Below are positions 1 to 63,975 of a stretch of DNA of 64,000 nt, piece after piece (within the stretch, counting starts at the first letter, position 1; each line of letters begins with the position of its first letter). The stretch is from positions 32,001 through 96,000 of IMG/VR virus record IMGVR_UViG_3300047160_007578. The stretch is one strand, 5' to 3'. The notes under the pieces were generated by a model, which was not told the DNA's origin, made no database searches, and saw only the letters and a program-made list of their open reading frames with translations. Both the position numbers and the translations under genes were made by a program. The DNA comes from a virus.

Positions 1-825
1 GACGACCAATACGATATCATGATCGTGGAAGGTTCCGCGGGCACAGGCAAATCTCAGATCGCCCGCGAGTCGATTAAAAATCTTGACCCGAAAGATTACT
101 GCTTTCTGGAAGGTCGGATTTCCGCGGTCTGCCTGTACGAGAAATTGTACAAGCACCGCGATCAACCCATCTACATCGACGACGTTGACGGTCTATACGC
201 TGACCGTCAGTGCGTGAACCTGTTGAAGTGCGTCTGCCAGACCAACGCGGACAAGACCGTCATGTGGAACACGCGCGGCATCAAGAACATGCCCGCGGAT
301 TTCACAACACGTTCCAAAGTCTGCATCATCACCAACAACTGGCGAGCACTCAACAAACACGTCGGCGCAGTGGAAGATCGGGGTATCCTTATCCCGTTCC
401 ATCCAACGCCATACGCGGTGCATGATTACGTCGGCAACAATCTGATCGACTGCGATTGGTTCGACGATGAGATTTTCATCTTCATCGGCGAGTTGCTGCC
501 CGTGATCAATAATCCGTCCATTCGCCACTACCGGAACTGCAAGCAAATCAAGAACGCAGGCCGGAACTGGCGAGCGGTCATGGCGGAATCGTGCGGACTG
601 AACGAAACCGAAGCTCTCGTGCTCAAGCTCCTTGTCGGCGGCGTGGAAGGTCAGCGGGTCAGTTTCAACGAACTGGCTCACATCTTCGCGCAGATTGCCG
701 ACCGATCAACGCGGACGTTCTGGCGAATCAAGGCGGAATTCGCCAAGAAGGGACTCACGTGTGCAGGGGAAGCGGAAATCCCAGCAGATCAGGAAGATTC
801 GGTCAACGGTCAGATCGATCATTAA
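1..825 (+). CDS. P-loop (AAA+-like) ATPase, probably 5'-truncated by the window edge
   Basis: Walker A GSAGTGKS, Walker B-like IYIDD; the frame is open back to base 1; only convincing + strand gene. Confidence 0.75.
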   Translation, partial: DDQYDIMIVEGSAGTGKSQIARESIKNLDPKDYCFLEGRISAVCLYEKLYKHRDQPIYIDDVDGLYADRQCVNLLKCVCQTNADKTVMWNTRGIKNMPADFTTRSKVCIITNNWRALNKHVGAVEDRGILIPFHPTPYAVHDYVGNNLIDCDWFDDEIFIFIGELLPVINNPSIRHYRNCKQIKNAGRNWRAVMAESCGLNETEALVLKLLVGGVEGQRVSFNELAHIFAQIADRSTRTFWRIKAEFAKKGLTCAGEAEIPADQEDSVNGQIDH

Positions 826-878
826 TCAACACCGGAATCCTCCGGTTCTCACTCGCTGTTCTTTTTCGATAAAATTCC

Positions 879-907
879 TTGACTCAAGCGGAGTTTCGGC
901 GTAAAAT
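879..907 (+). promoter_or_regulatory. sigma70-type promoter candidate
   Basis: TTGACT-17 bp-TAAAAT, preceded by AAAATTCC as in the minus-strand promoter cassettes. Confidence 0.5.
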
Positions 908-1282
908 GATTAATGATCAGAAACAGCGAAACGGGGTTCACGGCACACTCCGTTCGCAAGCCGAATTAATCAAATCATTCCCGCAAAGTCTGAAAATGGC
1001 GGTTTTTGTCATAAGGATTTTTCCTTATGACAAAAGTGGGCCATTTTCGACGCGCAAACGGCAGCGCTGGCCAGCGCTGCCGGTGTGGGAAGGGCGAACA
1101 CTGAACAAAGATTCAGTTTTTGTTCGGTGCAAATGGGATTCACGCCACATTGCGCGCGGCGCTATGATTATTAATCGGGGCGGCCATTGCATAGAGCGCT
1201 GGCGAATGGAACAGGAAATCGAAATTCATAATTCAGTTTCACAATCGGCCCGACCCTGGAGGGTCAATTGATCAATGATCTT

Positions 1283-1570
1283 TCAACGGTCGTCAGAAGT
1301 TATCTCCACCGCTCGGATATCTTTTGCGACCGAGCAAAGAACATTGTGCAGATTGGTCAACGGCACCACGATGCCCTTGGTCGCATTGAACATGCTGGCG
1401 ACATTCGATCCCTGTCCCGGCAGTGCGACCAGAATATCTCCCATATCGCAGCCGACCGGAATCTCACCCGGTTTCGCGCAGACTTTCTCGACGCGGAGCG
1501 GCACCAACATCGGACAATTGTGAGCAGGGATCGCTTCCTTCACTGGCTGACGAACGATTTTAATAGACAT
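1283..1570 (-). CDS. hypothetical protein
   Basis: ORF with AGGAG Shine-Dalgarno upstream. Confidence 0.6.
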   Translation of the reverse strand: MSIKIVRQPVKEAIPAHNCPMLVPLRVEKVCAKPGEIPVGCDMGDILVALPGQGSNVASMFNATKGIVVPLTNLHNVLCSVAKDIRAVEITSDDR

Positions 1571-1599
1571 TGCGAGACTCCTTTTCCTGAGGGTGATGA

Positions 1600-1854
1600 T
1601 TAATAATCATTTACTTTTGGCTCGCTGAAAATCAGACTCCCCATTATCGACGCAACCAACATCAAACCGGTAGAAACTGCACCGAAATTGCGAACCAAAT
1701 CAAAAGCAACCAGAAATCGTGATACGTAAATGTAACCACCCATACCAACTTCATCAGCCCACTGTGTCTTGAGAACATCCAAGACACAAATCAAAAGACA
1801 CAGCAAGAGCGATACCGCTCCCCAACCAAGTAGAATAACCTTCGCTGCCTTCAT
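1600..1854 (-). CDS. small membrane protein
   Basis: two hydrophobic segments; AGGAG RBS. Confidence 0.65.
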   Translation of the reverse strand: MKAAKVILLGWGAVSLLLCLLICVLDVLKTQWADEVGMGGYIYVSRFLVAFDLVRNFGAVSTGLMLVASIMGSLIFSEPKVNDY

Positions 1855-1899
1855 GCCGAAAACTCCTGATCAATGATCAATTCCAATTTCCAACGCTCT

Positions 1900-3129: not shown

Positions 3130-3534
3130 TTAATCACGATAGCCACGATTTTCAGGAGCTAAATCATCTATTCTTTTTAAGTAAGGTCTTTTCAATTTTG
3201 CTTTTGAACATTTATAACACATCAATTCTCCCTCATTTTCTGTGTTGAATTTTAGTATAATTAATTGACTATTTTCCTCACTGCTACCATCTTCGCCTCT
3301 GAACCAAATTAAAAATCTTTTACATTTTGGACAACAGAAACCTGTCCTATTAGAGAGATCATTAATCAGCCACTCCAACTCTTCCTCAGTTATTTCATGC
3401 CCTGCACGTTTCGCGGTAATGATCATCTGTGATATTTTCCGATGCGGTATACATCTCTTATTTTTTGGGCCCAATCCCGCCCGCTCCAGATGACACAGAT
3501 CACATCGCTCGTGTTCAAACTCTTCAAAGACCAT
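3130..3534 (-). CDS. Cys-rich hypothetical protein
   Basis: CxxC pairs; tiles with neighbours. Confidence 0.65.
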   Translation of the reverse strand: MVFEEFEHERCDLCHLERAGLGPKNKRCIPHRKISQMIITAKRAGHEITEEELEWLINDLSNRTGFCCPKCKRFLIWFRGEDGSSEENSQLIILKFNTENEGELMCYKCSKAKLKRPYLKRIDDLAPENRGYRD

Positions 3535-5230: not shown

Positions 5231-5761
5231 TCAGTATGCCCTCACTTCCCACCAGACAGTTTTCCTATTTGGTAACACACCAACATTTGTCTGGTACGTA
5301 GAGAACTCTATCACCCACGCATCCCTATACATTTCCAGTAACAACATCAAATCCTCCCAATCATTACCTTCCATGTGTACTTTCAACAGCGACCACGCCA
5401 GTAGTCCAGTAGCACATATCCCATTTGGATAGGTAACAGCTTCCCGGTGCCTCAATCCAGCTTCGGTACTATAAGTCAATTTCAATTCGGTATCAGTCAA
5501 GTAAATATTCCCCTGTATCGTTAACAAATCATCAGGCATCGATTCATTGAAATGACACCTGTCGCAATCTGCCCAAACAATATCCTTTACGTGTACACCA
5601 TACCTAGCCTTACCACCGATATCTAACGGTCTTAGTGTAACATATCCACTATAATCAGAGTCCCTCAATTCCTTCCAGTTTGCCCAAATCCTGGGCCTAT
5701 TACCAAACTCCCCCTTATCAAAACGCTCAACAAACTCTCGTTTGCTTCGCGGAGCGGCCAA
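5231..5761 (-). CDS. hypothetical phage protein
   Basis: 176-aa ORF in the operon. Confidence 0.7.
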   Translation of the reverse strand: MAAPRSKREFVERFDKGEFGNRPRIWANWKELRDSDYSGYVTLRPLDIGGKARYGVHVKDIVWADCDRCHFNESMPDDLLTIQGNIYLTDTELKLTYSTEAGLRHREAVTYPNGICATGLLAWSLLKVHMEGNDWEDLMLLLEMYRDAWVIEFSTYQTNVGVLPNRKTVWWEVRAY

Positions 5762-6058
5762 TCATCCACCTTCACTTTCGCGTTTATTGTCCAGTTCCAC
5801 CAGACACACTTCCAGAGTAGACGTGAACATCAGCTTCATCAACTCCAGCGACGGTTTCGCGTCATCAGATATCTTGGCCAGGTCCAATTTCTCCCGTATA
5901 TCTAACATCATCTGCGTAATCAGAGCCTTTACTTTCTCAATGTCTTTCCCGTGAATCAACAGAGCCGTCGTCGTTATCAACTCGTTCTGCAATTGCATTT
6001 GCTGTCTATTGAAATTCTCAGGCGTCAGGTTCAGGTCCGGCGAATCGAATCCAGGCAT
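5762..6058 (-). CDS. hypothetical protein
   Basis: GGAGG RBS; helical. Confidence 0.65.
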   Translation of the reverse strand: MPGFDSPDLNLTPENFNRQQMQLQNELITTTALLIHGKDIEKVKALITQMMLDIREKLDLAKISDDAKPSLELMKLMFTSTLEVCLVELDNKRESEGG

Positions 6059-6090: not shown

Positions 6091-6981
6091 CTATAGCCAA
6101 CCCCACTCATCCCCTCTAAGTCTGCTCCAATCAAAGTCGCCAACTTCAATCACTTCCCCTAATTGTTTCTCTACCATCAGAGCACAATATTGTTTGCTTA
6201 TCTCCACTCCAAAAACGTATCTCTGTTCACCACCAGGACCGAGCCCCAGCTTATTAGCCCGTAAAGAACTCCCTGATCCCGCAAAAAGATCAACGAAACA
6301 TTCCCCAGGAAACGTAGAAAACAGAATGATCCTTTCCATCAACTTGATCGGATGCTGCGTAGGAATCTCCGGAACTCTTTCCCAGGAATTACCCACAATC
6401 CGCGGAAACGCCCAAACATTGGCTGGAACCCTTGGACCAGCGGCTCTACCGTCCCCTAAAAGCATCCGCCCTGATACCTCTCTTATAGAATCAACATTCA
6501 ATCTACCCAATCTATTATCCGAGTATGTTCCCGGCCGCTTCCCACCGTCTCGGGGCTTATTCCCGGTCCACCGAAACCGCAAAATTGGCCGATACCCGCT
6601 GGTGCAATCGCTGTCGTTGTACTGACCGAAAGTATAATTCCAAATGAACTTATCAACTTCAACCGTCGGAAAGATTGCACCGTATTTCTTTCCTTCGTAC
6701 CCCTCCACTTTCCGACCTTTAATCAATTCCAGAACAAGACTGCAAATCTCTAGGTCATGTATCTGATTGTAAGACAACCAAAAGATTTCACATCGACTGA
6801 CAGCTTCGATTATCAACAGTTTCAACCAGAGATAGTATGTCTCAGGGTCCAATCTATCTCGATAAATATTTTCTTCACCGTAATCAAAACCAATATTATC
6901 AGGCACGTCTGCAAACATAGCCTTGACTTTCCCTGGCGGAGTCTTCCGTAGGAATTCAAGGCAGTCTCCGTGAATGATCAA
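6091..6981 (-). CDS. beta-class (N4-C/N6-A) DNA methyltransferase-like protein
   Basis: IIHGDC start, PTQHP, SAM-binding DLFAGSGS, GVEIS; motif IV reads DVPD instead of DPPY. Confidence 0.8.
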   Translation of the reverse strand: MIIHGDCLEFLRKTPPGKVKAMFADVPDNIGFDYGEENIYRDRLDPETYYLWLKLLIIEAVSRCEIFWLSYNQIHDLEICSLVLELIKGRKVEGYEGKKYGAIFPTVEVDKFIWNYTFGQYNDSDCTSGYRPILRFRWTGNKPRDGGKRPGTYSDNRLGRLNVDSIREVSGRMLLGDGRAAGPRVPANVWAFPRIVGNSWERVPEIPTQHPIKLMERIILFSTFPGECFVDLFAGSGSSLRANKLGLGPGGEQRYVFGVEISKQYCALMVEKQLGEVIEVGDFDWSRLRGDEWGWL

Positions 6982-7944: not shown

Positions 7945-8346
7945 CTAACCCTCAGTTCGTTGTATTTCATCTTTCCCTCGGGATTGGATACAAGGCATAC
8001 ACCAGAACTGTTCACCTATTGTCCCCATATTCACAATCTCATACCCTTTCGCCAAATCATTCTTCTTGCAATTTTCACAGATATCGATACCCTTGAACCA
8101 GCGAGCTTCCGATATAGGATCATGTTGTATTTTGACTCGTACTTCTATCTCCCTAGGTCTCTCAAACAACATCTTGAACCAGTCCCAGAAATTCCAACCC
8201 ACTGTAACCGTAGTCGTAATGAACGGGTCTTCTATTGCTTCGACCTTATTAAGTTTCCCATTTATTTCCGTTCGTAGAAACAAATGGCGTTTCATGTCTC
8301 TGACCAGTTTCTTGGCCATCCAGCCCTCCTTTTGATTAAAAATCAT
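7945..8346 (-). CDS. hypothetical protein
   Basis: tiles operon; C-terminal CxxC pairs. Confidence 0.6.
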   Translation of the reverse strand: MIFNQKEGWMAKKLVRDMKRHLFLRTEINGKLNKVEAIEDPFITTTVTVGWNFWDWFKMLFERPREIEVRVKIQHDPISEARWFKGIDICENCKKNDLAKGYEIVNMGTIGEQFWCMPCIQSRGKDEIQRTEG

Positions 8347-8638
8347 AGAAAAATATCACTTTGTCCAACAGCAGCATTACCTCATCAAACGTATGATGAT
8401 CATTGAATGAACTGATATTATCAACATAAGGTGCAAACGCGCCCAGAATCTCATCAGGTAGCCAACCGTTTGGCCGAATATTTAGAACTTTCCTTATCGC
8501 TCCCCCTAGACACCAACAAATAGCCTCAGGACTTGTAGGCTCACAAGGCTCCTTCCTATTATTGAAAGCGTATCCATTCTTCGTCCAGCAACTTTGATCC
8601 TTATAGAGTGCCCTTACCGCGATCAGAGTTTCAATCAT
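8336..8638 (-). CDS. DUF6197-like phage protein
   Basis: WTK...CWCLGGAI...FND pattern recognised by eye. Confidence 0.55.
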   Translation of the reverse strand: MIETLIAVRALYKDQSCWTKNGYAFNNRKEPCEPTSPEAICWCLGGAIRKVLNIRPNGWLPDEILGAFAPYVDNISSFNDHHTFDEVMLLLDKVIFFYDF

Positions 8639-23679: not shown

Positions 23680-23972
23680 TGGTTCTCACCCGACTAATGG
23701 ATTAAAAATCACCTGATACTTGGTTCTCATCAGGATCACAGCTACATTGGTTCTCACCAGTCGGATGGTTACACCTATCATTTGTTTCTTTCGCGGCCAG
23801 TGGATACTCACTCCTCATCTGGTTCACACGTGGATTATGGATTCGCTAGGATATTGGTTCACACTTCCTCGAAGGATAAACACTATCGGCTTGGTTCTCT
23901 CGCACGAACTGGATACTCACCGGGTTTTTGGTTCTCAACCGAGCTTGGATTCACTTGTGATCTGGTTCTCGT
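23680..23972 (-). ncRNA. TIGR-like dual-repeat guide-RNA array (~8 units)
   Basis: alternating TGGTTCWCAC and TGGWTAC(TC)AC-type repeats with 8-nt variable spacers. Confidence 0.8.
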
Positions 23973-23977
23973 GGATC

Positions 23978-24009
23978 GATCACACCCGGTATTGCTACCG
24001 GGTGTGATC
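23978..24009. terminator. perfect hairpin bordering the array
   Basis: GATCACACCCGGT-ATTGCT-ACCGGGTGTGATC. Confidence 0.6.
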
Positions 24010-24014
24010 ATTAA

Positions 24015-24248
24015 TCACGACTGCTTCGGTCCGGGAGCCGGCGTCGCGGGCGGAGTCGTCGGAGGCTGTTCCGGCGTCGCAGGCGGAGTACCCGGCTGAT
24101 GCGACGGCGCACCAGGTGGGACGTTGGGCTGGTGTCCCGGAGCCGGTGGTGCTCCGGGAGTAGGACGCTGTTCAGGCGTCCCGCCCGGCTTGACCGGCTG
24201 TTGCGACGGTCCACCAGCTTTGGTTTCACTCATGGGTTCTACCTCCAA
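24015..24248 (-). CDS. small Pro/Gly-rich low-complexity protein
   Basis: GGAGG RBS; repeated PPATP motifs. Confidence 0.55.
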   Translation of the reverse strand: MEVEPMSETKAGGPSQQPVKPGGTPEQRPTPGAPPAPGHQPNVPPGAPSHQPGTPPATPEQPPTTPPATPAPGPKQS

Positions 24249-24347
24249 GGGCGACAGGGGATGAGTTGGCGGTGAGCAACGATCTACGGACCAACTACGT
24301 GCACGACCTTATCCGTATCTTTGGTGATTTTTAATCAGGCGAACCAA

Positions 24348-25307
24348 TCAGGCCGATGCTTCGGGCGTTTCCCTCTCGGGATCATCCTGCTCCGCGGGCT
24401 CTTCCGTTGGTGTCTGGTTCATTTCCTCCGGAGTCAGCGGTCGAACCGGAGCAACCACCTTGGTTTCGACTGACACGCCACCGATGGTCAGCTTCGTAGC
24501 CTCTTCCTCGGGCTCAGGCTCGCTGGGCTCGGGCGTGGGCGGAGCGAGCCGCGGATCATTGATCGAAACCCACTGCTCGGTGTCCGGGTCGAACGCCTCG
24601 AAATACTTTGCCGAGTAGTTCTTGTCGTAGGCCGGATGGATCGACTCCGGGAAGCGAGTCCTGAGTTCCTCGATTGACTTGCCCTCCCACAGCGTCTTGA
24701 ACTTCGGCTTCTCGTGCAGCCGCGACGTGGGAATCCGACCGTCCCGCCAGATGAACCGGACCTTCCGGCGGTTCTCGATCGCCTTGAGCGCTTCGTGGTA
24801 TTCGGACTCGAAAGCCCACCAGAGCGCCTTGGCGGTCTTGTCACCCTGCATCTCGACGTACAGGATGCGGTCGTCTTCCTTGGGGATGACGAGATTACTA
24901 ATCGGACCGTCGATGCTGGGCTGGTCGCTGCCGTTGCAGGTGATCGACTTCTGCCGCGACAGGTGGAAATACACGACGGCCTCATCGCCGTCACGCTTGG
25001 CGAACGCGAAGGCACGCTCACCCTGATTGAAAACCTTGGTCACGACCGCGCGCTGCGCACTGCATTCCCAGCAGTGCCAGATCAGGAACCCGTCCCTGGA
25101 AACGGAAGCGATGGGCTTGTTGCACTTCGGGCAGGGGCGACTGACCTGTGCCGCACGCGACCATTCGACCATGAAGAAGGGCTGGAATCGTTCCTGAATC
25201 TTGGCGGCGCACTCAGCGCATTTGCAGCGCTTGTCGTGCGAGCCAGCGACGGATTCGGTGTCGTCATCCGGGGTTTGGACGACGGCCTGGGAAATGTTCT
25301 CGCTCAT
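24348..25307 (-). CDS. Zn-ribbon plus cold-shock-like OB-fold protein
   Basis: CPKC..CWEC then FAFAKR...VYFHLS (RNP1/RNP2-like). Confidence 0.6.
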   Translation of the reverse strand: MSENISQAVVQTPDDDTESVAGSHDKRCKCAECAAKIQERFQPFFMVEWSRAAQVSRPCPKCNKPIASVSRDGFLIWHCWECSAQRAVVTKVFNQGERAFAFAKRDGDEAVVYFHLSRQKSITCNGSDQPSIDGPISNLVIPKEDDRILYVEMQGDKTAKALWWAFESEYHEALKAIENRRKVRFIWRDGRIPTSRLHEKPKFKTLWEGKSIEELRTRFPESIHPAYDKNYSAKYFEAFDPDTEQWVSINDPRLAPPTPEPSEPEPEEEATKLTIGGVSVETKVVAPVRPLTPEEMNQTPTEEPAEQDDPERETPEASA

Positions 25308-25406
25308 ACGAGGCTCCTGAGGGTTAGGGCGAAAGGGATTTCGGACTACGCCAGGAACACCCCAGCGTTTATGGTCCAAACAATACTTTTCGATCATTAA
25401 TCTTTC

Positions 25407-25691
25407 TTACAAATCTGTTCGAGCTTTTTCGATAGCGGCCAATTCTTCCTGGGCCTGGGCGCGACAATCCATTTGGACTGCGAATTCAGACGCACGAGAC
25501 TCGAATGCCGGTAGACTCTCTCCTTCCCTTATTCTGAGGAAACAGACTAATTCACCGTCCTTGGCATCCGGACCAAGGAAAATCGGGATGAAAGCGATTG
25601 AATCCTCCTTTCCGTTTTTCCGAAGAAATTCCACGTCCCCTGAGTAATAAATCACCGCCGGCATAATACACTCCTTAAGTGGTTCCCGCAT
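25407..25691 (-). CDS. hypothetical protein
   Basis: true start probably MPAV, downstream of the array. Confidence 0.55.
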   Translation of the reverse strand: MREPLKECIMPAVIYYSGDVEFLRKNGKEDSIAFIPIFLGPDAKDGELVCFLRIREGESLPAFESRASEFAVQMDCRAQAQEELAAIEKARTDL

Positions 25692-25891
25692 CGGATTTGG
25701 TTACACGAGTACCTTGGTTCACGCGCACGAAATGGTTACGCGACGATTATGGTTCCCACTGTTTGTATGGTTACGCTTCTACGTTTGGTTCTCGTCCATC
25801 TGATGGTTCCATTCGCCGGGCTTGGTTCTCACATCGAGATTGATTAAAAATCACTGCTCCTATGGTTCTCACGTGGTGCGAGGATAATCAC
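25680..25891 (-). ncRNA. TIGR-like array immediately downstream of the Tas gene (~6 units)
   Basis: TGGTTCCCGC-ATCGGATT-TGGTTACAC-GAGTACCT-TGGTTCACGC-GCACGAAA-TGGTTACGC...; 35-nt period. Confidence 0.85.
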
Positions 25892-26958: not shown

Positions 26959-27018
26959 GGTTCACATCCTTTCTCCGGTCGTTGACCGGAATGCGATTAT
27001 TAATCAACGTCTCTTTTT

Positions 27019-28342: not shown

Positions 28343-28361
28343 TGTTACCTCACTCGGGTTT

Positions 28362-49920: not shown

Positions 49921-50251
49921 CGTTTTCTTTCCGTGTCGCCTGAATACAACCTATTAGTTCCACGCGACTCATTGAAGAATAGTTGCGAATACTTTTATCC
50001 CGTGCTATTTCGCGCAGACAACGAACATCAAGTAATTCAAAGCTATTAGTTCGCTTTAGTACGCACTTTACCCAAAAAGCAATCGCTTCCCTATCACTGG
50101 ATTCGATATATTGAAGAACTTGCTTTCGCTCTTCCTCGCTGCAAAGGTCATACGCTGTCTGAAATGCCTGTTGCTCAACGAATCGAAAGACGTTGAGCAC
50201 AGACAAATACCTGGAATGCAACGAGCATCGCAAGTCAGCGAACAGCATCAC
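49826..50251 (-). CDS. protein with Rho N-terminal-like helical domain
   Basis: LREIARDKSIRNYSSMSRVELI. Confidence 0.6.
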   Translation of the reverse strand: MMLFADLRCSLHSRYLSVLNVFRFVEQQAFQTAYDLCSEEERKQVLQYIESSDREAIAFWVKCVLKRTNSFELLDVRCLREIARDKSIRNYSSMSRVELIGCIQATRKENDDTPTAGTENGNGNGAGEIREVERGLISKAV

Positions 50252-52917
50252 CTAGCCCTCCAGCCCTTTTTAATTGAATAGTCTATGTGTTCATCTTTGG
50301 ACATTAAACGCCAACTATATCCTTCGTATTTGTCTTGCTGCTTGGTCAAACAACGGTAAATCTGGTTAAAGTCCAATCCAAATTTCTTTACATCGAATCG
50401 GTTCTTGTAAGCATCAACGATTTGGTTTTGATCATTAATCGAAACGATACCATATCCCTTATCACCCCAATTGATTACATAGCTATCCCACGGCATTTTG
50501 ATAAGCGGGACCATCGGTCTAATAGCTTCAACTGCATCTTTTACCACTTTGGCTACCTTTTCAACATATTGTGGTTTGACCGGAGTAATGATCGAATCGT
50601 GGATATTAACAGGTTGAACGATCCATTCGTGTTCGCCCTTTGGTTGCAGATTCCAAACAGCCAATTGAACACGCTTGGTTGCCTCAGCACCAGTTCCTTG
50701 AATCACATGGTTCGCAGCCGCACGCTTATTGTGGCCTTGTACATTGAACGCCGCGGAATATATAGCTGAACAGGCCGCACCACCCGCAGTTTGAACCCTA
50801 TCAGTTCGTGTAACTTTCAGTTTGATATCTTTCATTGCCTTTGGCATTTTATTTGCTAGTTCAAACAATGCTTTGCAAATCATATTTTCTAAAGTAAAAT
50901 ATCGTTTGAAACCAAACAAGGTTTCCATGTAATCAGATGGTTGATGCCATTCTACTTTCGTCCCGCGTCCACCCGGCTGTCGCATGGATTGGAACATATC
51001 GACGACAACTTGCTGTGCCCGACCAACACCCTTGTACTTGCGATCAAATCTTCTATTTGCTTCCTCAGCTGCCTCTAATGGTATTCCAAGGCGATCTTGC
51101 ATTGTTCCAGCATCGCCGCCGTAGATTTTGAGGAAGACAGCTTGCTTTGATTTTGTGTACCTATCATCGTCCGTCTTTTCTGTCGCCTTGATTTCATCGT
51201 AAGTCATACCAGGGAAACAGAACATACCGAACAGAGCGTGAATCTTTTGGCCCTTATTGCTACCACACTTGGAACAGATATAGTCACATTTATTTTGATC
51301 AAAAATCATTTCAGACTTGCAAGACTCACAAGTCAACAAGTCCTTTTTCAATTCCGGATCGTTATAAACAGCTACCGCGATTGTTACCTCGAATGCGTCG
51401 AAGTCACCACCCGCTAGAACTTCATCGCCCCAAGTGAACAAAAATTGCATCTTTACTGCGAAGGTATTTTTGACAGCTTGAATGTTCAAACCGTCCGCAC
51501 CGCTCATGCGACCACTGAGTGTCCCGATCACTTTCAAGGACGCGTGAAGTCTTCCGGCCGCAATAATCTTGTCCCACAGTTCACGTTCCTTATCTGCCTT
51601 TCTTGCTAATACGATCTGCTCGCAGCGCACAGCCGCGGGGTGTTTAATAAATCCAGTCCCTTTACAAACCAGGCACTTATCGTGATCAATCCCGTTACTG
51701 TCTTTTTCCATGCATGGCAATTTCCATTCGCGTGCAATATACTCAAGTGTTACTTTCTTGGTGTTACCATGCTCTGAACTGAAAGCTAATTTCTCATTCT
51801 CATCGCAGACGGCCATGATGTAACGCTTAACATCAGCCGGGGCCGTAGGCAATGGAACTAGATCATTCTGAATTGGATCAAAAATCAATTTCCGCTTGAA
51901 TGATTCGTCGCGATGTTTTATCGCACCCGCTATATCCATCCGGTATCCGCGCCAACGCGAGCAAGCAACCATGATCGCCAACTCGCTATCCATATCCCCC
52001 ATATCAGCTTCAGTTATATTGAAGAACTTACACAAACCGCGAGTATAGACGATATCATCTTCCGCGTATTTCCGGGCCAACTCATTGTAGCCCCAATGTA
52101 TGATATGTTCTTTAATCAACGCGGGCCAAGTGTTCCGATACGGCCCTGCTCGTTTCCGTTCCTTGGATTTATTTTTGAGTTTTAATCGAATCGCCGCTTT
52201 AGCAAACGGAGCATAACCGAATTCGACAGGGAATAGCCGGGGCGATATGTCTCCGTATCGTAGTATCTGCTCATACGTTGCCAATCCAACATCGACAGCC
52301 AAAGCTTTCAAAGCGGAGCTTGGCTTGAACTTCAATACGATATCCTTCCAATCAGGATCAATCTCACCAAATGTATCTTTTCGATCCCGGACGTTCCACT
52401 TCGATTGGTTCTTATCTTTGCGCCTAGCGAAGTAAATGTCCTTTAGAGGAATCCGTTTCTCTAATTCTTCTGCCACCATCCAAGCAAGTGGTGTAGGAAC
52501 GCGTCTTAAGACTACGTCTTTCCTTTCCATTGTGCTCTGATAACTTGTCCTGCGTGCGTGCAGGAACAAGTCACATACTTTTTGTGGGCGTATCGTTGTC
52601 GGACAATCTCTGCCGGCTTCTTCCAGTTCGATTATTGTTTCGATATGATCTTCAGGATATGCGTCAGGATCAATCTCCATCAATTGCTTGATTATCGTGT
52701 ACCACTTAACCAGGTGGAACCAATCGAAAACCGCATTAAAGAATATTAATCCGTCCTTGTGATGAACGAATTTCATTATCAGTTCCCAAGACTCTTTTGC
52801 TGGAGAAGTCCAAGGAGAAAACAGATTGATTGGCCCATCGCCTTCCGCCCACTGGATCAGAACGACAAGCCCATGCAGTCCACACGTTTCTGTGTCAATA
52901 ACTATCGGACTGAACAT
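50248..52917 (-). CDS. polA: family A DNA polymerase with 3'-5' exonuclease
   Basis: Exo I IDTET, Exo II FNAVFD, Exo III YAEDD; GTLSGRMS, motif A GDFDAFEV, motif B RYTKSKQAVFLKIYG, motif C IHDS. Confidence 0.92.
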   Translation of the reverse strand: MFSPIVIDTETCGLHGLVVLIQWAEGDGPINLFSPWTSPAKESWELIMKFVHHKDGLIFFNAVFDWFHLVKWYTIIKQLMEIDPDAYPEDHIETIIELEEAGRDCPTTIRPQKVCDLFLHARRTSYQSTMERKDVVLRRVPTPLAWMVAEELEKRIPLKDIYFARRKDKNQSKWNVRDRKDTFGEIDPDWKDIVLKFKPSSALKALAVDVGLATYEQILRYGDISPRLFPVEFGYAPFAKAAIRLKLKNKSKERKRAGPYRNTWPALIKEHIIHWGYNELARKYAEDDIVYTRGLCKFFNITEADMGDMDSELAIMVACSRWRGYRMDIAGAIKHRDESFKRKLIFDPIQNDLVPLPTAPADVKRYIMAVCDENEKLAFSSEHGNTKKVTLEYIAREWKLPCMEKDSNGIDHDKCLVCKGTGFIKHPAAVRCEQIVLARKADKERELWDKIIAAGRLHASLKVIGTLSGRMSGADGLNIQAVKNTFAVKMQFLFTWGDEVLAGGDFDAFEVTIAVAVYNDPELKKDLLTCESCKSEMIFDQNKCDYICSKCGSNKGQKIHALFGMFCFPGMTYDEIKATEKTDDDRYTKSKQAVFLKIYGGDAGTMQDRLGIPLEAAEEANRRFDRKYKGVGRAQQVVVDMFQSMRQPGGRGTKVEWHQPSDYMETLFGFKRYFTLENMICKALFELANKMPKAMKDIKLKVTRTDRVQTAGGAACSAIYSAAFNVQGHNKRAAANHVIQGTGAEATKRVQLAVWNLQPKGEHEWIVQPVNIHDSIITPVKPQYVEKVAKVVKDAVEAIRPMVPLIKMPWDSYVINWGDKGYGIVSINDQNQIVDAYKNRFDVKKFGLDFNQIYRCLTKQQDKYEGYSWRLMSKDEHIDYSIKKGWRAR

Positions 52918-54072: not shown

Positions 54073-54945
54073 TCACATCTTGTGAACCGCCATCAAATCA
54101 AGTACCTCAACTGGTGGACTGTATCTCAAGTGATTTTCTTTCGCGTATTCAACCAGATCGCGGTACAGATCAAGGTCACTGATTTCGCCGTTCGCCCATG
54201 CCAGAGCACGGGTTGCCAGATTCCCCTGTCCCATTTCTTCAATGATATGATCGATCATCTGGAAGATTTCTTCCGGATTCCGACGCTTCCGTTGCGTTGG
54301 CTTGGACTTCTTCTTCTTGATCACCGGAAGTCGTGTCTCGTTCCGAAGCTTCGCTTCCTTGATGGCCTTTGCCATCGTCATCTGTTCCGACGGGTCTTTG
54401 ATTTCAGAAAGATCATAAATCTGTCCCTGCGTCAAGAAGCCTGCCGCGGCTGCCTCTTGGATCGGTTCAGCCATCGAGAGCAAACCCATACGGATGACGA
54501 CCCACTTCTTGCCTTGTCCAGTGAGCCTAGCAATTTCGCCGATAGTGGCACCGAGTTTAATAAAACGATCGATACCGTGAGCTTCCTGCAATATATTCAA
54601 ATCCTGTCGTTGGATGTTCTCAACGAAATTGAGACCGAGAGCTTGAATCTCTGTCAAGCCCTCTCGAAGAATCGTGGGGATTGTTTCGCGCTCGAGATAC
54701 TCGTAAGCCGCGTATCGTCTGTGACCTACCACAACCTTGTATTTGTAGCCCGGAATATCGAACGGACGAACCGTGATCGGTTGAAGTAAACCCTGTGCCT
54801 CAATATCTTTTGCAAGCTCAACGATGCTTGCCGGATTAATCTCTCCGCGAATATTGAATTCCGGATCGGAAAAGATATCGGAAAGTAGAAAATGTTCTAC
54901 CTTCATATCCTTTTCATTTTCAGGAATGGCCACTGCGACGTTCAT
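54073..54945 (-). CDS. parB: ParB/Spo0J-like protein
   Basis: ELAKDI...GLLQPITVR, VVGHRRY (GxxR CTP motif), ENIQRQDL, HTH. Confidence 0.9.
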   Translation of the reverse strand: MNVAVAIPENEKDMKVEHFLLSDIFSDPEFNIRGEINPASIVELAKDIEAQGLLQPITVRPFDIPGYKYKVVVGHRRYAAYEYLERETIPTILREGLTEIQALGLNFVENIQRQDLNILQEAHGIDRFIKLGATIGEIARLTGQGKKWVVIRMGLLSMAEPIQEAAAAGFLTQGQIYDLSEIKDPSEQMTMAKAIKEAKLRNETRLPVIKKKKSKPTQRKRRNPEEIFQMIDHIIEEMGQGNLATRALAWANGEISDLDLYRDLVEYAKENHLRYSPPVEVLDLMAVHKM

Positions 54946-56125: not shown

Positions 56126-56592
56126 GCAAACTCGCCAAAATATTTCTTTGCCGCCCTGTCGTAAGCTCTCGCTGCTTCCTCTTCAGTATTAAAGGAACCC
56201 AGATATTTTGACTTACCGTTAAGTCGAATCTGAGCACACCATGTTCCACTTTTCTTGTAGTAATGAACACCTTTATAATCGCTATATTTCTTTCTACTTT
56301 GTGCTCTTCGATTTTGACAAGTATGAGCAGTTGTAGCTTCTCTCAGATTTTCTCGCGTACAGTTAAAAGGCTGTTGATCTTTATGATCAATATCTTTTTC
56401 TTTTGACAATCTCATTCTGTTCGCGATAAATCGGTGCAGATACTGCTTTCGATATTTTCCATCAATTTTTATATCGCGAAAAGCATAACCTTTACCATTA
56501 CTGTGCCAAAGAAAAGCCTTAACAGCTACTTCGTCTTCAACACTAACATAATGAAAATCATCACCTGTTACAGAAATACGAGCAACAGTCAT
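56104..56592 (-). CDS. HNH-AP2 homing endonuclease
   Basis: YLHRFI, IDHKD...NCTRENLR; AP2 YKGV..WCAQI..YLGSFNTEEEAARAYD; AT-rich relative to flanks. Confidence 0.9.
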   Translation of the reverse strand: MTVARISVTGDDFHYVSVEDEVAVKAFLWHSNGKGYAFRDIKIDGKYRKQYLHRFIANRMRLSKEKDIDHKDQQPFNCTRENLREATTAHTCQNRRAQSRKKYSDYKGVHYYKKSGTWCAQIRLNGKSKYLGSFNTEEEAARAYDRAAKKYFGEFACLNFPE

Positions 56593-58652
56593 ATTGCACG
56601 CTCATACTCAATTTCCACTTTATTCATTACTGTTTGAAGTTGTCCGAGACTCATGTTCATCAGATTAATCTTACGAATATGACTTTCCAACACAACTTCA
56701 TCTTGCGGTAAATGCACCAAGTCTATTATTTGACAGCCACGATTGTGATCTGCTCCAGGACGATGTATTCGATCAATTGCTTGCGCTCTATCTTCAGCGC
56801 GAAACGAATTAGAGTAGAATACTTCAGCCGACGAAGCTGTTAAATTTAGCCCCATTCCACCTGCCCCAGGATTACCAACAAAAACTACCTTAGGAAAATC
56901 ATTCGTATTATCAAATAGTTGGAGCATCCGAACTCCAAACTCTTTCGTAATCACTACTTCCATTTTAGTCATAATATCAGGACTTGCCCACCAACCACGA
57001 CCATCCAATCTAATAACAGACCAACCATTTTTAATACACGTATCAACATTACGGTCAACGCTATCGGAAAATGCGGCCCAGATTATAAATCGTCCTTCGT
57101 CTGAAAATTGATCAAGCAAATCAGCAATGACCTGATCCTTCGGGCATTCGACGCGAGTAGCAATGCGAGAGTAATGAACAACCGTGCCCTTCTTTCCGCA
57201 TTGGGGACAGTCGATTTCCTTTTCACCGATATTGAGTGGTTCTTCCTTGTAGCCAGTTACGATGTTCTTTTCTTCGTCCCATATTGCTCGATGACCGCGA
57301 GCCAGCGATTCACCATCCAGAGGATTGGTCGGATCATCCAAATCGACGTTCATTTTGATTATTAATCGTCCCTCACAGGTCGGGCAAGTTTCCTCGCCAT
57401 CGGGGACTTCCTGATATTGGAAACCATCAGATAATTCGCGATTAAGAGTCAGTGCCTTGATTGCGGAACGTGCCGTTTTCGTTATCAGATTGGAAGCCCG
57501 CAACACACTCGGTGTTGGCTTGCACTTGATTATCTTGAATACTTTTTCCGGCAAGTCCAATAGGTCTTTCTTGAACTTGACCAGTACCAGACCCTTCAAT
57601 CGTTCGTACAGATACGCAACTTCGTTTACTGATTTCTGGTATGGATGATACCATGACTCGCACATATTAATGTGATCGTGGTCGGGATCGTCCTGGAACT
57701 TCCCGCATACTTTACATTTATTTTCATCGTCCCACCAGGTAACGAGTTTCGGAAAGCTCCCGCCGGTGGAACTCTCGTATTGTTTGATCAGCGCGAGTCG
57801 ATTTTTGAACTTAACCAGATTCCCTTCCTTTAGAAATCCCGGACAAGCTATCTCACATAACGACCACCAGTCCGATGGGTCTTTCGGTGCTGGCGTGCCA
57901 GTCATCAGAATGATTAATGATTCGCGACCATATAGATGACGCATCCTATCAGCGATGATTTGAATTGCCTGAGTCCGCTGAGCAGTAGGAGTCTTGAGCC
58001 GACTTGCCTCGTCGCACACTAGAACCCGCGGCAGAATGATTTGATCGAGCTTATCTACAAATGACCGTATTGCCTCGTAGGTAAAGAACAGTGGCACTGT
58101 CCCAGCTTGCCACTTGACGAATTCATATTTCACCGAATCCAACGCAGATCGCGGTCCAGCCCACATACATTCTTCGGGCTTGAATCGCAGGACGTTTATT
58201 GCGTACTCAAGCGCTTCAATAGACGCCAGAGTCTTACCAACACCCATTTCCTCAGCAACAATGCAATGTCGCCGAGTTAGCTCGAATGCCGTCGTTTCGA
58301 CTTGATGGTTGTACGGTGGCGGATTAGTTCGGTAGGAATTATATTCGACCAGTGGCGTGTCATATGGGGCATACGGGTTCAACCCCATCAGATACGCTAA
58401 CTGGAAATGATTGCGAGGAGTGTCACTGACTACCCAAACCTTGCGTGGCTTCTCTTCATCGAAACCGAGCCAGCGTGCTCCCTCCATCGCTTTGACTTCA
58501 TCTTTCAATCTGGCGTTGAAACCAAATTGGATTAATAATCGAGAATAGCCGTGAATCTGTTCGCGAACTATCACGGCTGGCATCGTTCGCGTCCGTCCGT
58601 CAGAGACATACTGAAAACGAACATGCCCTGTCGGAATGTTAATAAGTGGCAT
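56589..58652 (-). CDS. SNF2-family (SF2) helicase/ATPase
   Basis: PYNHQ, EMGVGKT, DEAS, MTGTP, GGMGLNL, QAIDRIHR. Confidence 0.92.
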   Translation of the reverse strand: MPLINIPTGHVRFQYVSDGRTRTMPAVIVREQIHGYSRLLIQFGFNARLKDEVKAMEGARWLGFDEEKPRKVWVVSDTPRNHFQLAYLMGLNPYAPYDTPLVEYNSYRTNPPPYNHQVETTAFELTRRHCIVAEEMGVGKTLASIEALEYAINVLRFKPEECMWAGPRSALDSVKYEFVKWQAGTVPLFFTYEAIRSFVDKLDQIILPRVLVCDEASRLKTPTAQRTQAIQIIADRMRHLYGRESLIILMTGTPAPKDPSDWWSLCEIACPGFLKEGNLVKFKNRLALIKQYESSTGGSFPKLVTWWDDENKCKVCGKFQDDPDHDHINMCESWYHPYQKSVNEVAYLYERLKGLVLVKFKKDLLDLPEKVFKIIKCKPTPSVLRASNLITKTARSAIKALTLNRELSDGFQYQEVPDGEETCPTCEGRLIIKMNVDLDDPTNPLDGESLARGHRAIWDEEKNIVTGYKEEPLNIGEKEIDCPQCGKKGTVVHYSRIATRVECPKDQVIADLLDQFSDEGRFIIWAAFSDSVDRNVDTCIKNGWSVIRLDGRGWWASPDIMTKMEVVITKEFGVRMLQLFDNTNDFPKVVFVGNPGAGGMGLNLTASSAEVFYSNSFRAEDRAQAIDRIHRPGADHNRGCQIIDLVHLPQDEVVLESHIRKINLMNMSLGQLQTVMNKVEIEYERAI

Positions 58653-60217: not shown

Positions 60218-60371
60218 GCCTTATTCTCGGCAATGGGCATTGAAGCGTGTCGCCGTTTCTGACAACGACACCATCCATGTGAACTGTTCCGTTACCGTCA
60301 TCGACAGCCGTGTAAATCTCGCGGTGTCCTTCTCGTCGAGTCACGACTACTTCAACTTCACACTCTTCCAT

Positions 60372-60610
60372 TGGTTCGCACTCACAGCGGGGTTGAACAG
60401 GCTGTTTGGTTCACGCGTGGAATGTGACTTCACACCCGACTGCTGGTTCTCGCAACGGATAAGGCTACGCGCATCGTCATCGGTTCTCACCATGTGCATG
60501 ACTACACGTTTGACTTGGTTCCCGCACACTGCATGGCTGCACACTTCCATTGTTTCTCGCGAAGAAGGTGGCTACGCTCGGTACCTGGTTCTCGCCGCGG
60601 GTCTGTTTAC
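60372..60610 (-). ncRNA. orphan TIGR-like array (~7 units)
   Basis: TGGTTCNCRC repeats alternating with TGRCTRCRC-type repeats, 8-10-nt spacers. Confidence 0.8.
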
Positions 60611-61624: not shown

Positions 61625-61682
61625 GATCTGTACTCTCTTTCGTTGAAAATCGGTAGAGTGAAAGACATCCTGCCAGTTGATC

Positions 61683-62162
61683 CTATAAATCTTGATCATT
61701 AATCAAATCATCTTGATTGGATACTTCTATCCAATTCCCGAAATAAACACCCAACACTCCAAACCTATTCATTTCTACAACTGTACACGGTATTGCGAAT
61801 TTATTCACAGGCTTATTAGAATCATGCCAGATAAGCGTAACCAGAACATGTCGTGTCGTTCCGACTTCAGGCCACGGTATTGTCCGAACATATACTGAGC
61901 ATCTTGCTCTGACCGGTGTATCAGGACGAAGCAATAATGGATCGCCCGATTCAACACACATGAACATCATATTGGTCATATCGACTTCTTCGCCGAACAT
62001 ATTATAGGCGACTATTGTGAATGATGAATCGCAATGATCAATAATCGCAAAATTAACGATATTATTTTTCTGTCCCGGATGTAATAACTTTTGGAGAACA
62101 CGCCGGAACCAGCTGGGGATGTTCCGGCGTGTTTCCACCGACCTGCCAGGGAGACTGCTCAA
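61683..62162 (-). CDS. hypothetical protein
   Basis: tiles operon. Confidence 0.5.
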   Translation of the reverse strand: MSSLPGRSVETRRNIPSWFRRVLQKLLHPGQKNNIVNFAIIDHCDSSFTIVAYNMFGEEVDMTNMMFMCVESGDPLLLRPDTPVRARCSVYVRTIPWPEVGTTRHVLVTLIWHDSNKPVNKFAIPCTVVEMNRFGVLGVYFGNWIEVSNQDDLINDQDL

Positions 62163-62489
62163 TCAATCACCCACGTTGTAGTCGCCCTTGCCCGGTGAAC
62201 CCGGCGCCTTGCGCGGGGTCTGACCGGACTGGCCGACCGTATCGCCGTTGTCCTTGGCCGCGCCCGGGGTCTCGAAATCCTCGTGATACAGTTCGGGATT
62301 CGGGACACCGCTGCCGACCTCGCCAGCGCCCGGAGGCGACGGGGACGCGCCGGCCGACTGAACCGCGGGAACGTTGGAGACCGTGCGATCAAGCGTGCCG
62401 CCGATGTAGTTGCCCGTGTCGGGAGTCATAGTTATCTCGGGAAACGATTCCGGCTGTGGCAACTTCGGGTGGGGAAGAACGCCGTCCAT
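62163..62489 (-). CDS. low-complexity hypothetical protein
   Basis: AAAGGA RBS; Pro/Gly-rich. Confidence 0.6.
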   Translation of the reverse strand: MDGVLPHPKLPQPESFPEITMTPDTGNYIGGTLDRTVSNVPAVQSAGASPSPPGAGEVGSGVPNPELYHEDFETPGAAKDNGDTVGQSGQTPRKAPGSPGKGDYNVGD

Positions 62490-62655
62490 GTTTTGGTCCT
62501 TTCTGTTGAGTTCAATATTATTTCACCGTATTGTGTTTAATCATATCCGATATTGTGATCTTTAATCAATTCTCGCCGTGGCCACCTGCCAACCATTAAC
62601 TACCCAGCCAACAGGTGGCCACGAGCGATTATCAAGGTCAACAGCGGACTTGTCG

Positions 62656-63777
62656 TTACTTGGCCCCGGCGGTCGCAGGGGCGGGAGCGGGCTCCTTGGC
62701 AGCCTGTGCGGCGCGTTCGGCGATCCGCTTTTCGAGTTCCTGCCGCGTCTTCTCGGCTTCGTCCTGCTTCTGCTTCGTGCGCTCGAGCGCCCGCTTGTCG
62801 CTCTCCTCCTTGCGCTTCTTCTCGCGGGCGTCGTGCTCCTGCTTCTGCACCACCTTGCTGTCCGGGTCCATATGCAGAGTCCACGCGACGCCGAGTGCGA
62901 AGGCTTCGGTCGGGTCCGTGATCTTTAATCCCTTGACGAGCAAGGGACCGATGACGGCCTTCTCGAACTCGCCCTTGACCTCGCTGAGCTTGCGGGCGTG
63001 GGCCACCGGCTGGAACTCCGGCGGCGACTCGGCGCGGCCCTTCTTGCGAGCTTCCTTGATCTCCTTGACGCGGGCGGCGACCGCGGCGGAGAACTCACCG
63101 GCGGCTTGCGTCATGGCGCGGTCGACCCAGGCCGGCTGTTCCTCCACGGGGAGCTTGGCCAGTTCGGTCGCGTTGAAGAGCTTGATGCGCGCGTCGTCCA
63201 CGAGGGGCTTGATTTCCTCGTGCAGATGCTTGACCATGCCGAGCATCTTGTGAATCCAGGTAGTGGACTTGGAGAGCTTGCCCGACAACTCGGTGATCGT
63301 CATGAGCGGGTTGCGTTCGAGCAGGCGTGCGATCTGCTGCGCGTACTGGACAGGCCGCGTCTCGATCTTCTGCGCGTTGGCGATGATCTGCATTTCCTCG
63401 ATACGCGCCTGATCCGCGGTCGTGATGTGTGCCGGGATTTCCTTGATGCCCGCGTCGAGCGACGCGTTGTAGCGCTGCAGGCCGTCAATCAGGCCGTAGA
63501 GCTTAGCGCCGGGCTTCTCGGGGTCTTCGACTTCCCGGACAACAATGGGGTTGAGAACGCCGTCCTTGCGAATCGACGCGACGAGTCCGAGATAATCCTC
63601 ATTCTCGCGATCGACCGGCCGAAGCGCGACCGGATTCTCGCGAATGAGTCCGATGGGAATGTACCGCAAGGTATCGCCGTTGGCCGATGTTGCCAATGCG
63701 GGATTTTCCTTTGCCGGCGGATGCGCCGGTTCCTTTGCGGCAGGTGGAGTTTTCGTCGCTTGTTTGGTCTCAGCCAT
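62656..63777 (-). CDS. ParB N-terminal-domain protein with HTH and long charged C-terminus
   Basis: LVASIRKDGVLNPIVVR, LIDGLQRY, HTH MTITELSGKLSKSTTWI. Confidence 0.85.
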   Translation of the reverse strand: MAETKQATKTPPAAKEPAHPPAKENPALATSANGDTLRYIPIGLIRENPVALRPVDRENEDYLGLVASIRKDGVLNPIVVREVEDPEKPGAKLYGLIDGLQRYNASLDAGIKEIPAHITTADQARIEEMQIIANAQKIETRPVQYAQQIARLLERNPLMTITELSGKLSKSTTWIHKMLGMVKHLHEEIKPLVDDARIKLFNATELAKLPVEEQPAWVDRAMTQAAGEFSAAVAARVKEIKEARKKGRAESPPEFQPVAHARKLSEVKGEFEKAVIGPLLVKGLKITDPTEAFALGVAWTLHMDPDSKVVQKQEHDAREKKRKEESDKRALERTKQKQDEAEKTRQELEKRIAERAAQAAKEPAPAPATAGAK

Positions 63778-63878
63778 TGATACGTACTCCCTGATAAATG
63801 ATCCGGTGGACTCGACATAACTACGCCGTCAGGTCGTGTTTCACCATACATGCGCCTCTTTCCGTTCTCAATCATTTC

Positions 63879-63975
63879 GATTATTGATCACGTCTACCAA
63901 TTCGATTATTAATCAGATATTATTGTTCGCCCCACCGAATCATCAACGATTAATAATCCCCAGCGATTAATAATC
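63879..63975. promoter_or_regulatory. cluster of four GATYWNWRATC palindromes upstream of the ParB gene
   Basis: GATTATTGATC 63879, GATTATTAATC 63904, GATTAATAATC 63948 and 63965. Confidence 0.7.

Follow-up and report, generated by a model that had tools for sequence, protein, structure and literature searches.

Palindromes dispersed at high density through a 130-kb phage genome as putative binding sites of a phage-encoded dimeric protein

Introduction

What maintains one short palindrome at more than a hundred places in 64 kb of phage DNA? The stretch considered here, the window, comprises 64,000 bp of the virus record IMGVR_UViG_3300047160_007578 (bases 32001-96000); its source genome, G000, is a single contig of 130,262 bp. 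The element is the 11-bp palindrome GATYWNWRATC, the core of a 13-bp site. These palindromes are very probably the binding sites of a phage-encoded dimeric protein. The balance tips slightly towards a more specific proposal, in which they form a selectively maintained binding-site array and the likeliest reader of the array is a ParB-family protein. The literature searched describes neither this motif nor, in phages, a dense palindrome linked to ParB. The accessible text of a survey of ParB-fold proteins makes no mention of such sites in phages (PMC12704722).

Abundance and form of the palindrome

The window holds 123 exact matches to GATYWNWRATC, 121 of them within 817-63975. Shuffles preserving dinucleotide composition (n = 100) give a mean of 1.72 copies (sd 1.30, maximum 5), and none of the 100 reaches the observed count. 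A sequence-only reading of this DNA had reported more than 100 copies where about one was expected. That claim holds, and all 18 of its example coordinates were found again. Throughout the genome there are 224 copies, present in every 10-kb bin. Their mean spacing is 580 bp (median 498 bp), which amounts to approximately one per gene and 1.7 sites per kb. The gaps between them are more even than random: the coefficient of variation is 0.74, and 8% of gaps are shorter than 100 bp against 16% expected.

The excess persists against Markov and codon-preserving backgrounds. Markov models of orders 1-6 predict 3.8 to 35.1 copies in total for the genome, compared with the 224 observed. Copies lying wholly inside called coding sequences (CDSs) number 87. 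Shuffling synonymous codons 200 times leaves a mean of 8.24 (sd 2.4, at most 15), and permuting codon order 200 times leaves 1.80 (at most 6). Genes were called with a crude, purpose-made caller, and starts were re-picked by Shine-Dalgarno sequence. The motif excess is real and strongly non-random.

Alignment of all copies extends the site by one base on each side, with T at -1 in 57% and A at +11 in 53%; conservation stops there. The site is a 13-bp palindrome, T-GATYAWTRATC-A, with the 6-1-6 form TGATYA-W-TRATCA. It is symmetric, the central base being divided almost evenly between A (47% of copies) and T (49%). Because nothing is conserved outside the 13 bp, the palindrome is neither a mobile element nor part of a longer repeat but a short site. 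As far as the available source text goes, the exact 13-mer is also the site of yeast Yap8, a coincidence.

Selection on the sites and independence of the half-sites

In strain L027, which shares 85% nucleotide identity with G000, none of 53 aligned motif bases differs, against 14-16% elsewhere. When strains L027, L028 and L029 are pooled, 7 of 152 motif bases differ compared with 9.9% (one-sided binomial p = 0.014), and all seven changes belong to one lost site. These substitution patterns indicate that the motif bases are under purifying selection. L031, the closest relative (polymerase 58% identical), carries the same motif 37 times in 20.5 kb. Intragenic sites are shared between L031 and G000 at polymerase residues 346/350 and 828/826 and at residue 431/431 of an SNF2-family helicase; other sites differ. 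The combination of shared and differing sites suggests that the motif is both selected and turning over.

The two halves of the palindrome vary independently. Positions 4 (T/C) and 8 (A/G) are T..A in 124 copies, mixed in 87 and C..G in 13, against 125.3, 84.5 and 14.3 expected (Fisher p = 1.0), and a quarter of half-sites read GATC. Since these positions vary independently, a hairpin is unlikely, and two separately read half-sites on double-stranded DNA fit better.

Placement relative to genes

Copies not wholly within a CDS number 137 of the 224, in a genome that is 15% non-coding. Several registers recur: the motif overlaps a TGA stop in 22 copies (the flanking T plus GA), provides a TAA stop in 12 and directly precedes ATG in 8, and about 28 copies lie 21-29 nt before a start, immediately 5' of the Shine-Dalgarno sequence. 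Sites within 40 nt of the border of an open reading frame (ORF) make up 39% in G000, against 19% for random positions. The placement at gene junctions proposed by the sequence-only reading is thus present, but it is peculiar to G000. In three relatives with motifs of their own the bias is weak: 18-26% of sites are no more than 40 nt from an ORF border (13-14% at random), and 74-82% are more than 40 nt from any ORF boundary. The motif carries stop codons in one frame per strand, so gene borders would be its cheapest position, and the junction bias in G000 may be such an effect of cost. The same reading had used the motif to explain the many genes that begin MIN or MIFNQ. This proved to be largely an artefact of ORF calling. 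After starts were re-picked, only two stand in the ATG-ATT register, so many of the MIN/MIFNQ starts reflect in-frame ATGs that the motif creates upstream of the true start.

Lineage-specific palindromes in relatives

A tblastn search of the phage collection with the G000 polymerase gave no match, and neither did a single-protein scan of viral contigs for relatives of G000. Relatives were found via polymerase alignments built from 120 listed homologues, and 114 polymerase loci were gathered from viral, metagenome and genome contigs. Besides G000, 69 relatives' sequences of at least 9 kb were scanned blind for pairs of inverted 4-mers separated by 0-9 bp (cut ln P < -18). Of these, 22 pass, most with a dense palindrome of their own; many others show nothing. 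Set beside TGATTAWTAATCA, the site sequence of G000, the palindromes of relatives are GATT-N4-AATC in L017 and L043, GATT-N5-AATC in L013, L041, L062 and L051, and TGAT-N6-ATCA in L047, L049, L084 and L097. Single loci carry GGTA-N4-TACC (L014; the flanked form of this type is TGGTA-N4-TACCA), GTTA-N4-TAAC (L096), GTTT-N4-AAAC (L036), ATTT-N3-AAAT (L075), GATG-N4-CATC (L093) and GGTT-N5-AACC (L109). One of the 22, the viral contig L016, owes its excess of GTAC-N8-GTAC to a tandem CCCGTACCCG/CCCGGACCCG repeat, which is probably coding and not a dispersed palindrome.

Longer records of relatives, four of them 58-82% complete (G001-G004) and one complete (G005), give the same picture at genome scale. 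G001 has 81 copies of GATT-N4-AATC against 1.3 expected, G002 has 66 of GATT-N5-AATC against 3.4, and G003 has 79 of GGTA-N4-TACC against 2.7, each spread genome-wide. The signal in G004 is weak (16 against 2.6 expected). In G005, rated 100% complete, no genome-wide palindrome was found, and a dyad scan returned hexamer biases only.

The relatives' loci include contigs binned with Chloroflexota, Verrucomicrobiota and other metagenome-assembled genomes (MAGs). Two copies of the polymerase-ParB module, L110 and L114, lie in one Thermoguttaceae MAG chromosome (at approximately 2.16 and 2.71 Mb); neither has the dense palindrome. Their position suggests integrated relatives in Planctomycetota.

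Half-site arrays in the gap between ParB-like and primase genes

In G000 and in all five relatives' records, the gene for a ParB-like protein, g169, faces a P4-type primase gene (TIGR01613 match; genome 97039-99897, outside the window) across an intergenic region of 0.35-1.3 kb. The motif is densest here, with 8 copies in genome 95879-96341 and 11 in the 1.4 kb of 95700-97100. The region is likely to be a control, centromere or origin region. At its edges each examined lineage carries its own half-site, as period-5 tandems and as inverted pairs with spacers of 3-5 bp. These arrays read AATCaAATCa...TGATTtGATT in the TGATT lineages, including the motif-poor G005, L002, L004, L033 and L038, and CATCaCATC in L093, TAACaTAAC in L096, AACCaAACC in L109 and ATCAaATCA in L047. 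In G003 the array is CGTACCAAAAG, four times. The general half-site is 5'-TGxTx, in lineages that span 33-60% GC. Half-site arrays occur also in relatives without genome-wide spread. Because arrays of each lineage's own half-site are found across the clade, the genome-wide palindrome can be viewed as the dispersed form of a cis element from the clade's control region for replication and partition.

Two further repeats were observed. The sequence GGAAA-GATTTGATTAAT(C/T) has about 16 intergenic copies and holds two tandem half-sites of the palindrome. It is preceded by 'GTCAAGAGGAATTTTT...' or 'AGCGGAGCGCTGCGCGC...' and often adjoins repeats of the GTGAGAACCA type. GTGAGAACCA itself, at about 23680-31890 and 60361-60609 of the window, recurs strongly, and one 22-kb slice contains 10 copies. 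In L017 the lineage's own motif is clustered as long inverted repeats at 5441-5860 of the locus (about 8016-8571 in G001), with the layout CCGTTTATT-GATTACAGAATC-ACGA-GATTCTGTAATC-AATAAACGG. This cluster stands between the SNF2 gene and the gene for a core protein, g166, and not in the ParB-primase gap.

Candidate readers

Two ParB-family proteins, g153 and g169, are encoded in the window, and both genes are core to the clade. Chances that one of the two is the reader are about even. g153 is a canonical ParB/Noc-type protein. Compared with the PDB, it matches Noc best (7ol9, E 4e-22) and also KorB (8qa8, E 6.5e-9), and it aligns to Spo0J and ParB structures; its best cultured-phage match is 35% identical over 58% of its length. 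Orthologues of g153 occur in 68 loci, including 22 of the 23 strong-palindrome loci, the exception being L016 with its tandem coding repeat. g169 is a second ParB-family paralogue, with homologues in all five relatives' records. It has a helix-turn-helix (HTH)-like region by alignment, where Pfam makes no call, and its nucleotide-pocket motifs are divergent in a consensus of 31 orthologues. Both proteins exceed the TIGR00180 cut-off of 58.45 bits. Because g153 retains the CTP-pocket motifs, with GHRRYAA and ENIQRQDL at the corresponding positions, it is favoured over g169 as the candidate reader.

The Pfam scans covered 182 proteins of 45-420 aa and two further sets of ten proteins, some of them above 420 aa. 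DNA-binding families matched were HTH_ParB, AP2 (with HNH), Sigma70_r2 and zinc ribbons, the first three being the only sequence-specific ones; no ParA, integrase, repressor or other family of dimeric palindrome binders was matched in these scans. In most TGATT lineages the recognition helix of g153 reads SRGW[VI]Q[VI]RF, and it is altered where the half-site differs. Three of the five columns of g153 most associated with half-site class lie within the HTH. When seven protein families were scanned for covariation with half-site class, passing columns numbered 1 of 274 in g153, 7 of 881 in g172 and 0-2 in controls.

A number of observations weigh against a ParB-family reader. Control proteins score columns as high as those of g153, and no protein stands out statistically. 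G000 and L031 have a common site, yet their g153 helices agree at only 6 of 12 residues, L043 and L013 have spacers of N4 and N5 with nearly identical g153 helices, and the helix of g169 varies freely inside one half-site class. G005 has both ParBs (four ParB-like matches) and the intergenic arrays, yet no genome-wide palindrome, so ParB presence does not explain the spread. On the polymerase tree, a quick tree of 57 rows built from loci no shorter than 9 kb whose polymerase match spans 600 residues or more, the dense palindrome is patchy, and rich and poor lineages occur as sisters. The distance between the outer bases ranges from 13 to 15 bp among lineages, an unusual latitude for a single protein family, and the canonical parS and Noc site is 16 bp long without a spacer. 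Most small proteins of G000 have no family assignment, so the reader could be an undetected HTH or ribbon-helix-helix protein. A small Cro-like ORF is found beside the arrays in two relatives (71 aa in L017); most relatives are without one.

Other candidates were considered and set aside. Small ORFs beside the arrays are not conserved: 9 of 34 regions have no ORF of at least 40 aa on the primase strand, and the ORFs of the others are mostly unrelated. An accessory reader was sought by phylogenetic profile, and among G000 proteins none combines presence in all three motif-rich records with absence from the motif-poor one, three of the records being incomplete. The core protein g166 is not a likely reader. 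Its predicted structure gives weak Foldseek matches only (best E 0.048). They include several gp32-type single-strand DNA-binding proteins as well as the phiC31 recombination directionality factor; at best, these fold matches would make it a gp32-type single-strand binder.

A possible mechanism and its implications

The sequence-only reading had proposed a genome-wide, parS-like binding site for a dimeric phage protein. This is the best-supported reading of the palindrome, given selection on the motif, the independence of the half-sites, the lineage-specific versions, the arrays beside a ParB gene and the presence of two core ParBs. From these patterns we infer protein binding, the ParB identity of the reader and the effect of coating. 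The predicted scheme is as follows. (i) Each half-site, 5'-TGATY, would be read independently by the dimeric protein. (ii) The site type would derive from the half-site arrays kept between the ParB-like gene and the primase gene across the clade. (iii) In some lineages, including G000, inverted half-site pairs would have spread chromosome-wide, to about one per gene, where coding allows. (iv) A ParB clamp might then be loaded at each of the sites and cover or mark the phage DNA, leading to silencing, organisation or protection. Any particular downstream function of such coating is a tentative assignment.

A more far-reaching version is conceivable, though rather doubtful: the clade may run a co-evolving form of 'genome-painting', in which an orphan ParB-type clamp and a 5-bp half-site switch together by lineage, the sites doubling as cassette junctions. 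The loading site would, in many lineages, have come to occupy the entire chromosome at roughly one copy per gene, essential genes included. If so, each phage would coat only its own DNA, for self-marking, nuclease protection or global silencing. Should a ParB-type clamp read the sites, the role of partition-family proteins in lytic or plasmid-like phages would extend to the whole chromosome. If the sites are bound, 1.7 per kb is to our knowledge the densest specific protein-site array on any replicon. The clade contains at least 10 half-site/spacer versions, which, if the proposal is true, would be natural protein-site pairs with switched specificity from which rules of ParB recognition, and what a viral genome gains by being coated, might be learned. 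Dense motifs could also serve as strong signatures by which phage contigs are binned and phages sorted into 'specificity groups'.

Comparison with known systems

The nearest published observation concerns Cluster O mycobacteriophages such as Corndog, which carries 34 copies of the 17-bp palindrome 5'-TGTTCGGNNNCCGAACA. In the available text a dimeric protein is predicted to bind these repeats, with their function left open, and a protein with a ParB-like domain is reported without a parAB system (PMC4351075). As that text presents them, the likenesses to G000 are considerable. One exact palindrome occurs throughout a phage genome in more than 30 copies, inter- and intragenic, with an A/T-rich centre and no meaningful orientation; it is absent from other phages, and some indels lie between repeats. 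The differences are equally clear. Corndog has 34 copies against 224 in G000, which is several-fold denser if the Corndog genome is about 70 kb, the size we take it to have. The Cluster O repeat is 17 bp long and of other sequence than the 13-bp site of G000, and the phages are unrelated, the G000 polymerase being without a match in the phage collection. Neither lineage-specific variants nor half-site arrays beside the ParB gene appear in the accessible parts of the paper (PMC4351075). G000 is thus an extreme and more informative form of a phenomenon already in print without explanation, and a ParB reading may also supply a function for the Cluster O repeats.

The ParB-family protein KorB of the IncP plasmid RK2 is described, in the portion of the source available, as a CTP-dependent clamp that acts in long-range silencing (PMC11790492). 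It is, by analogy, the nearest mechanistic model. The KorB operators of RK2, OB, are 13-bp palindromes of 6-1-6 form, present at 12 sites, both at promoters and far away. The G000 site has the same length and form and similarly occupies positions at promoters and distant from them; its reader is predicted only. RK2 is a plasmid with about a dozen sites and G000 a phage with 224. RK2 also has the partners KorA/TrbA and IncC (a ParA); none was identified in G000, where no search was aimed at KorA/TrbA.

Noc, a ParB paralogue, reads a dispersed palindrome without ParA, with roughly 70 sites on 4 Mb. It is the best structural-sequence match of g153, but its sites are on a cellular chromosome at a density about 100-fold lower than in G000. 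Likeness to ParABS partition systems lies in the ParB_N and HTH_ParB domains of g153 and in the TIGR00180 scores of both proteins. Such systems differ in having a ParA, none of which appeared in the family scans, and one or a few parS sites near parB against 224 copies over 130 kb, yet 8-11 of these copies are beside g169.

Stoperators of Cluster A phages are sites for a phage protein distributed over the genome, often at gene junctions, according to the part of the source that was accessible (PMC9283540). In contrast to the symmetric sites of G000, they are asymmetric, follow the direction of transcription and bind a monomeric immunity repressor; G000 yielded neither a repressor nor an integrase. 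Stoperators number about 20-35.

Alternative explanations

The reader might instead be a phage protein outside the ParB family, for example a small repressor acting as in stoperator systems or a primase-helicase on iterons, or it might be a host protein; we consider this unlikely. Ribbon-helix-helix centromere proteins read short boxes, and the layout seen here, in which half-sites of 4-5 bp form direct period-5 tandems together with inverted pairs at spacers of 3-5 bp, recalls such boxes, with the arrays adjoining a primase gene. The 71-aa Cro-like ORF next to the L017 arrays and the patchy tree would suit an accessory or host factor. Yet the array region holds no conserved small ORF, no protein has a motif-rich-only profile (three records being incomplete), and an initiator with over 200 iteron sites would be without precedent. 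A host factor, moreover, leaves unexplained why the same half-site stands in the phage's own control region in lineages of 33-60% GC. Somewhat less probable again is that the sites are primarily recombination junctions, at which cassettes are swapped at gene borders by microhomology or a site-specific enzyme. The sequence-only reading had offered a role in shuffling small gene cassettes, and three of four homology breakpoints with L027 and L029 are indeed no more than 6 bp from a motif in one or more of the genomes compared. Homology ends at genome 81222/81223 in both strains; in L029 the motif occupies 3161-3171 and homology begins at 3172, and in L027 homology ends at 427 and the motif is at 433. 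The segment concerned contains a 121-aa gene replaced by unrelated sequence in both strains. Its other edge is at a motif in L029, and in G000 motif 48907 is 41 bp away. The Cluster O paper, in the sections available, attributes two indels to recombination between 17-bp repeats, but its discussion holds that few if any repeats take part in rearrangements (PMC4351075). The breakpoints in the present data are four, one of them common to two strains, and motifs and mosaic joints both favour gene borders; a conserved motif next to a swapped segment will, in addition, always end a BLAST alignment. Intragenic sites in the polymerase and SNF2 genes, held in place at approximately 55% protein identity, are left unexplained by this proposal, as are the 74-82% of relatives' sites deep inside ORFs. 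The breakpoints hint at cassette movement between phages. Because the events are few and confounded with gene borders, exchange is taken as a likely side effect of identical 13-mers at those borders, and is probably a by-product.

Explanations without a dedicated binding protein fare worse. A mutational or repair bias tied to a methyltransferase or to base modification, or a motif that is itself the modification target, is very unlikely. Such an origin has been proposed for HIP1 (GCGATCGC), an 8-bp palindrome of cyanobacterial host genomes that is linked to a methyltransferase and, like the G000 motif, hugely over-represented genome-wide in and outside genes. We know of no half-site arrays or lineage-specific spacers for HIP1. 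G000 does encode an adenine methyltransferase, together with ThyX, a dCTP-deaminase-like protein, a dUTPase and a dNMP kinase; a quarter of the half-sites read GATC, and bipartite palindromes with variable spacers resemble targets of restriction-modification systems. However, a homologue of the methyltransferase is present in one of the five relatives' records (four of them 58-82% complete), and that one is the motif-poor G005; the enzyme is therefore unsupported as a cause of the excess. Such a bias also leaves the tandem half-site arrays in the control region and the even spacing unexplained. Some phage ParB-like proteins activate thymine dioxygenases; in the available text these proteins are without a DNA-binding domain, and the dioxygenases prefer trinucleotide contexts (PMC13229309). 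This route was discarded for G000, where no Tet_JBP match was found in the genome at E up to 1. Least probable, and highly unlikely, is a hairpin signal in RNA or single-stranded DNA, or a signal for translation or gene junctions comparable to the start-associated sequences of Cluster K phages. Many copies lie immediately 5' of a Shine-Dalgarno sequence or on stop codons, and the relatives' spacers of 3, 4 and 5 nt would suit loops. Pairing covariation between positions 4 and 8 is lacking, though, the 87 mixed copies are imperfect palindromes (T..G or C..A), and four tested sites fold as RNA at 0 to -2.5 kcal/mol. Unlike the Cluster K sequences, the motif has no fixed position before starts, occurring in several registers relative to starts and stops with 87 copies in CDSs, and the junction bias nearly disappears in relatives.

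Besides the enzymes just named, G000 encodes an NT5C-like nucleotidase, a 2OG-type Asp/Arg hydroxylase-like protein and a sigma-70 region-2 protein. This complement of proteins hints that nucleotide pools are altered or bases modified, and that the phage directs transcription.

Features of the window and promoter-like sites

Table 1. Coordinates of the palindrome, repeats and genes discussed in the text (window positions unless marked as genome positions).
Feature	Position	Strand	Remarks
Dispersed GATYWNWRATC copies, n = 123	72..63975	.	full site T-GATYAWTRATC-A; subset of the genome's 224
N6/N4 adenine DNA methyltransferase, RsrI/CcrM class	6091..6981	-	predicted by family matches
GGAAA-GATTTGATTAAT(C/T) copies	23654, 30848, 36245, 44950	+	intergenic
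GGAAA-GATTTGATTAAT(C/T) copies	23565, 30758, 36155, 44859	-	intergenic
GGAAA-GATTTGATTAAT(C/T) copies	genome 96373-96712		outside the window
Small gene, 121 aa	48857..49222	-	replaced by unrelated sequence in L027/L029; homology stops at motif 49223
DNA polymerase A gene	50248..52917	-	3 motif copies (50430, 51297, 51876); marker for finding relatives
g153, 290 aa, canonical ParB/Noc-type	54073..54945	-	ParB_N 4e-14, HTH_ParB 2e-9; TIGR00180 84.7 bits; motif inside gene at 54411
SNF2-family helicase gene	56589..58652	-	3 motif copies (57081, 57357, 58530); one at L031-equivalent residue 431
g166, core protein, 232 aa	60926..61624	-	AlphaFold pLDDT 82.4
g169, 373 aa, second ParB-family paralogue	62656..63777	-	Pfam ParB_N 1e-13; TIGR00180 81.1 bits; faces half-site arrays
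Densest motif cluster, start	63879..64000	.	4 copies in window; divergent intergenic region g169/primase

Motif centres lie 1-30 bp upstream of the -35 boxes of sigma-70-like promoters in 9 cases, against 2.6 expected, and two are within promoter spacers; of 50 promoter-like sites, 31 are free of the motif between -80 and +60. Outside the window, genome 13.7-27 kb (loci L143/L144) is an early-looking region with dense, strong sigma-70-like promoters. Locus L144 (20 kb, genome 15-35 kb) has 40 promoter-like sites against 14.5 in shuffles. Many promoters of the L143/L144 region are of the form TTGACA-N16/17-TATGAT, occur on both strands and drive very small ORFs, and the palindrome often stands directly upstream of the -35 box.

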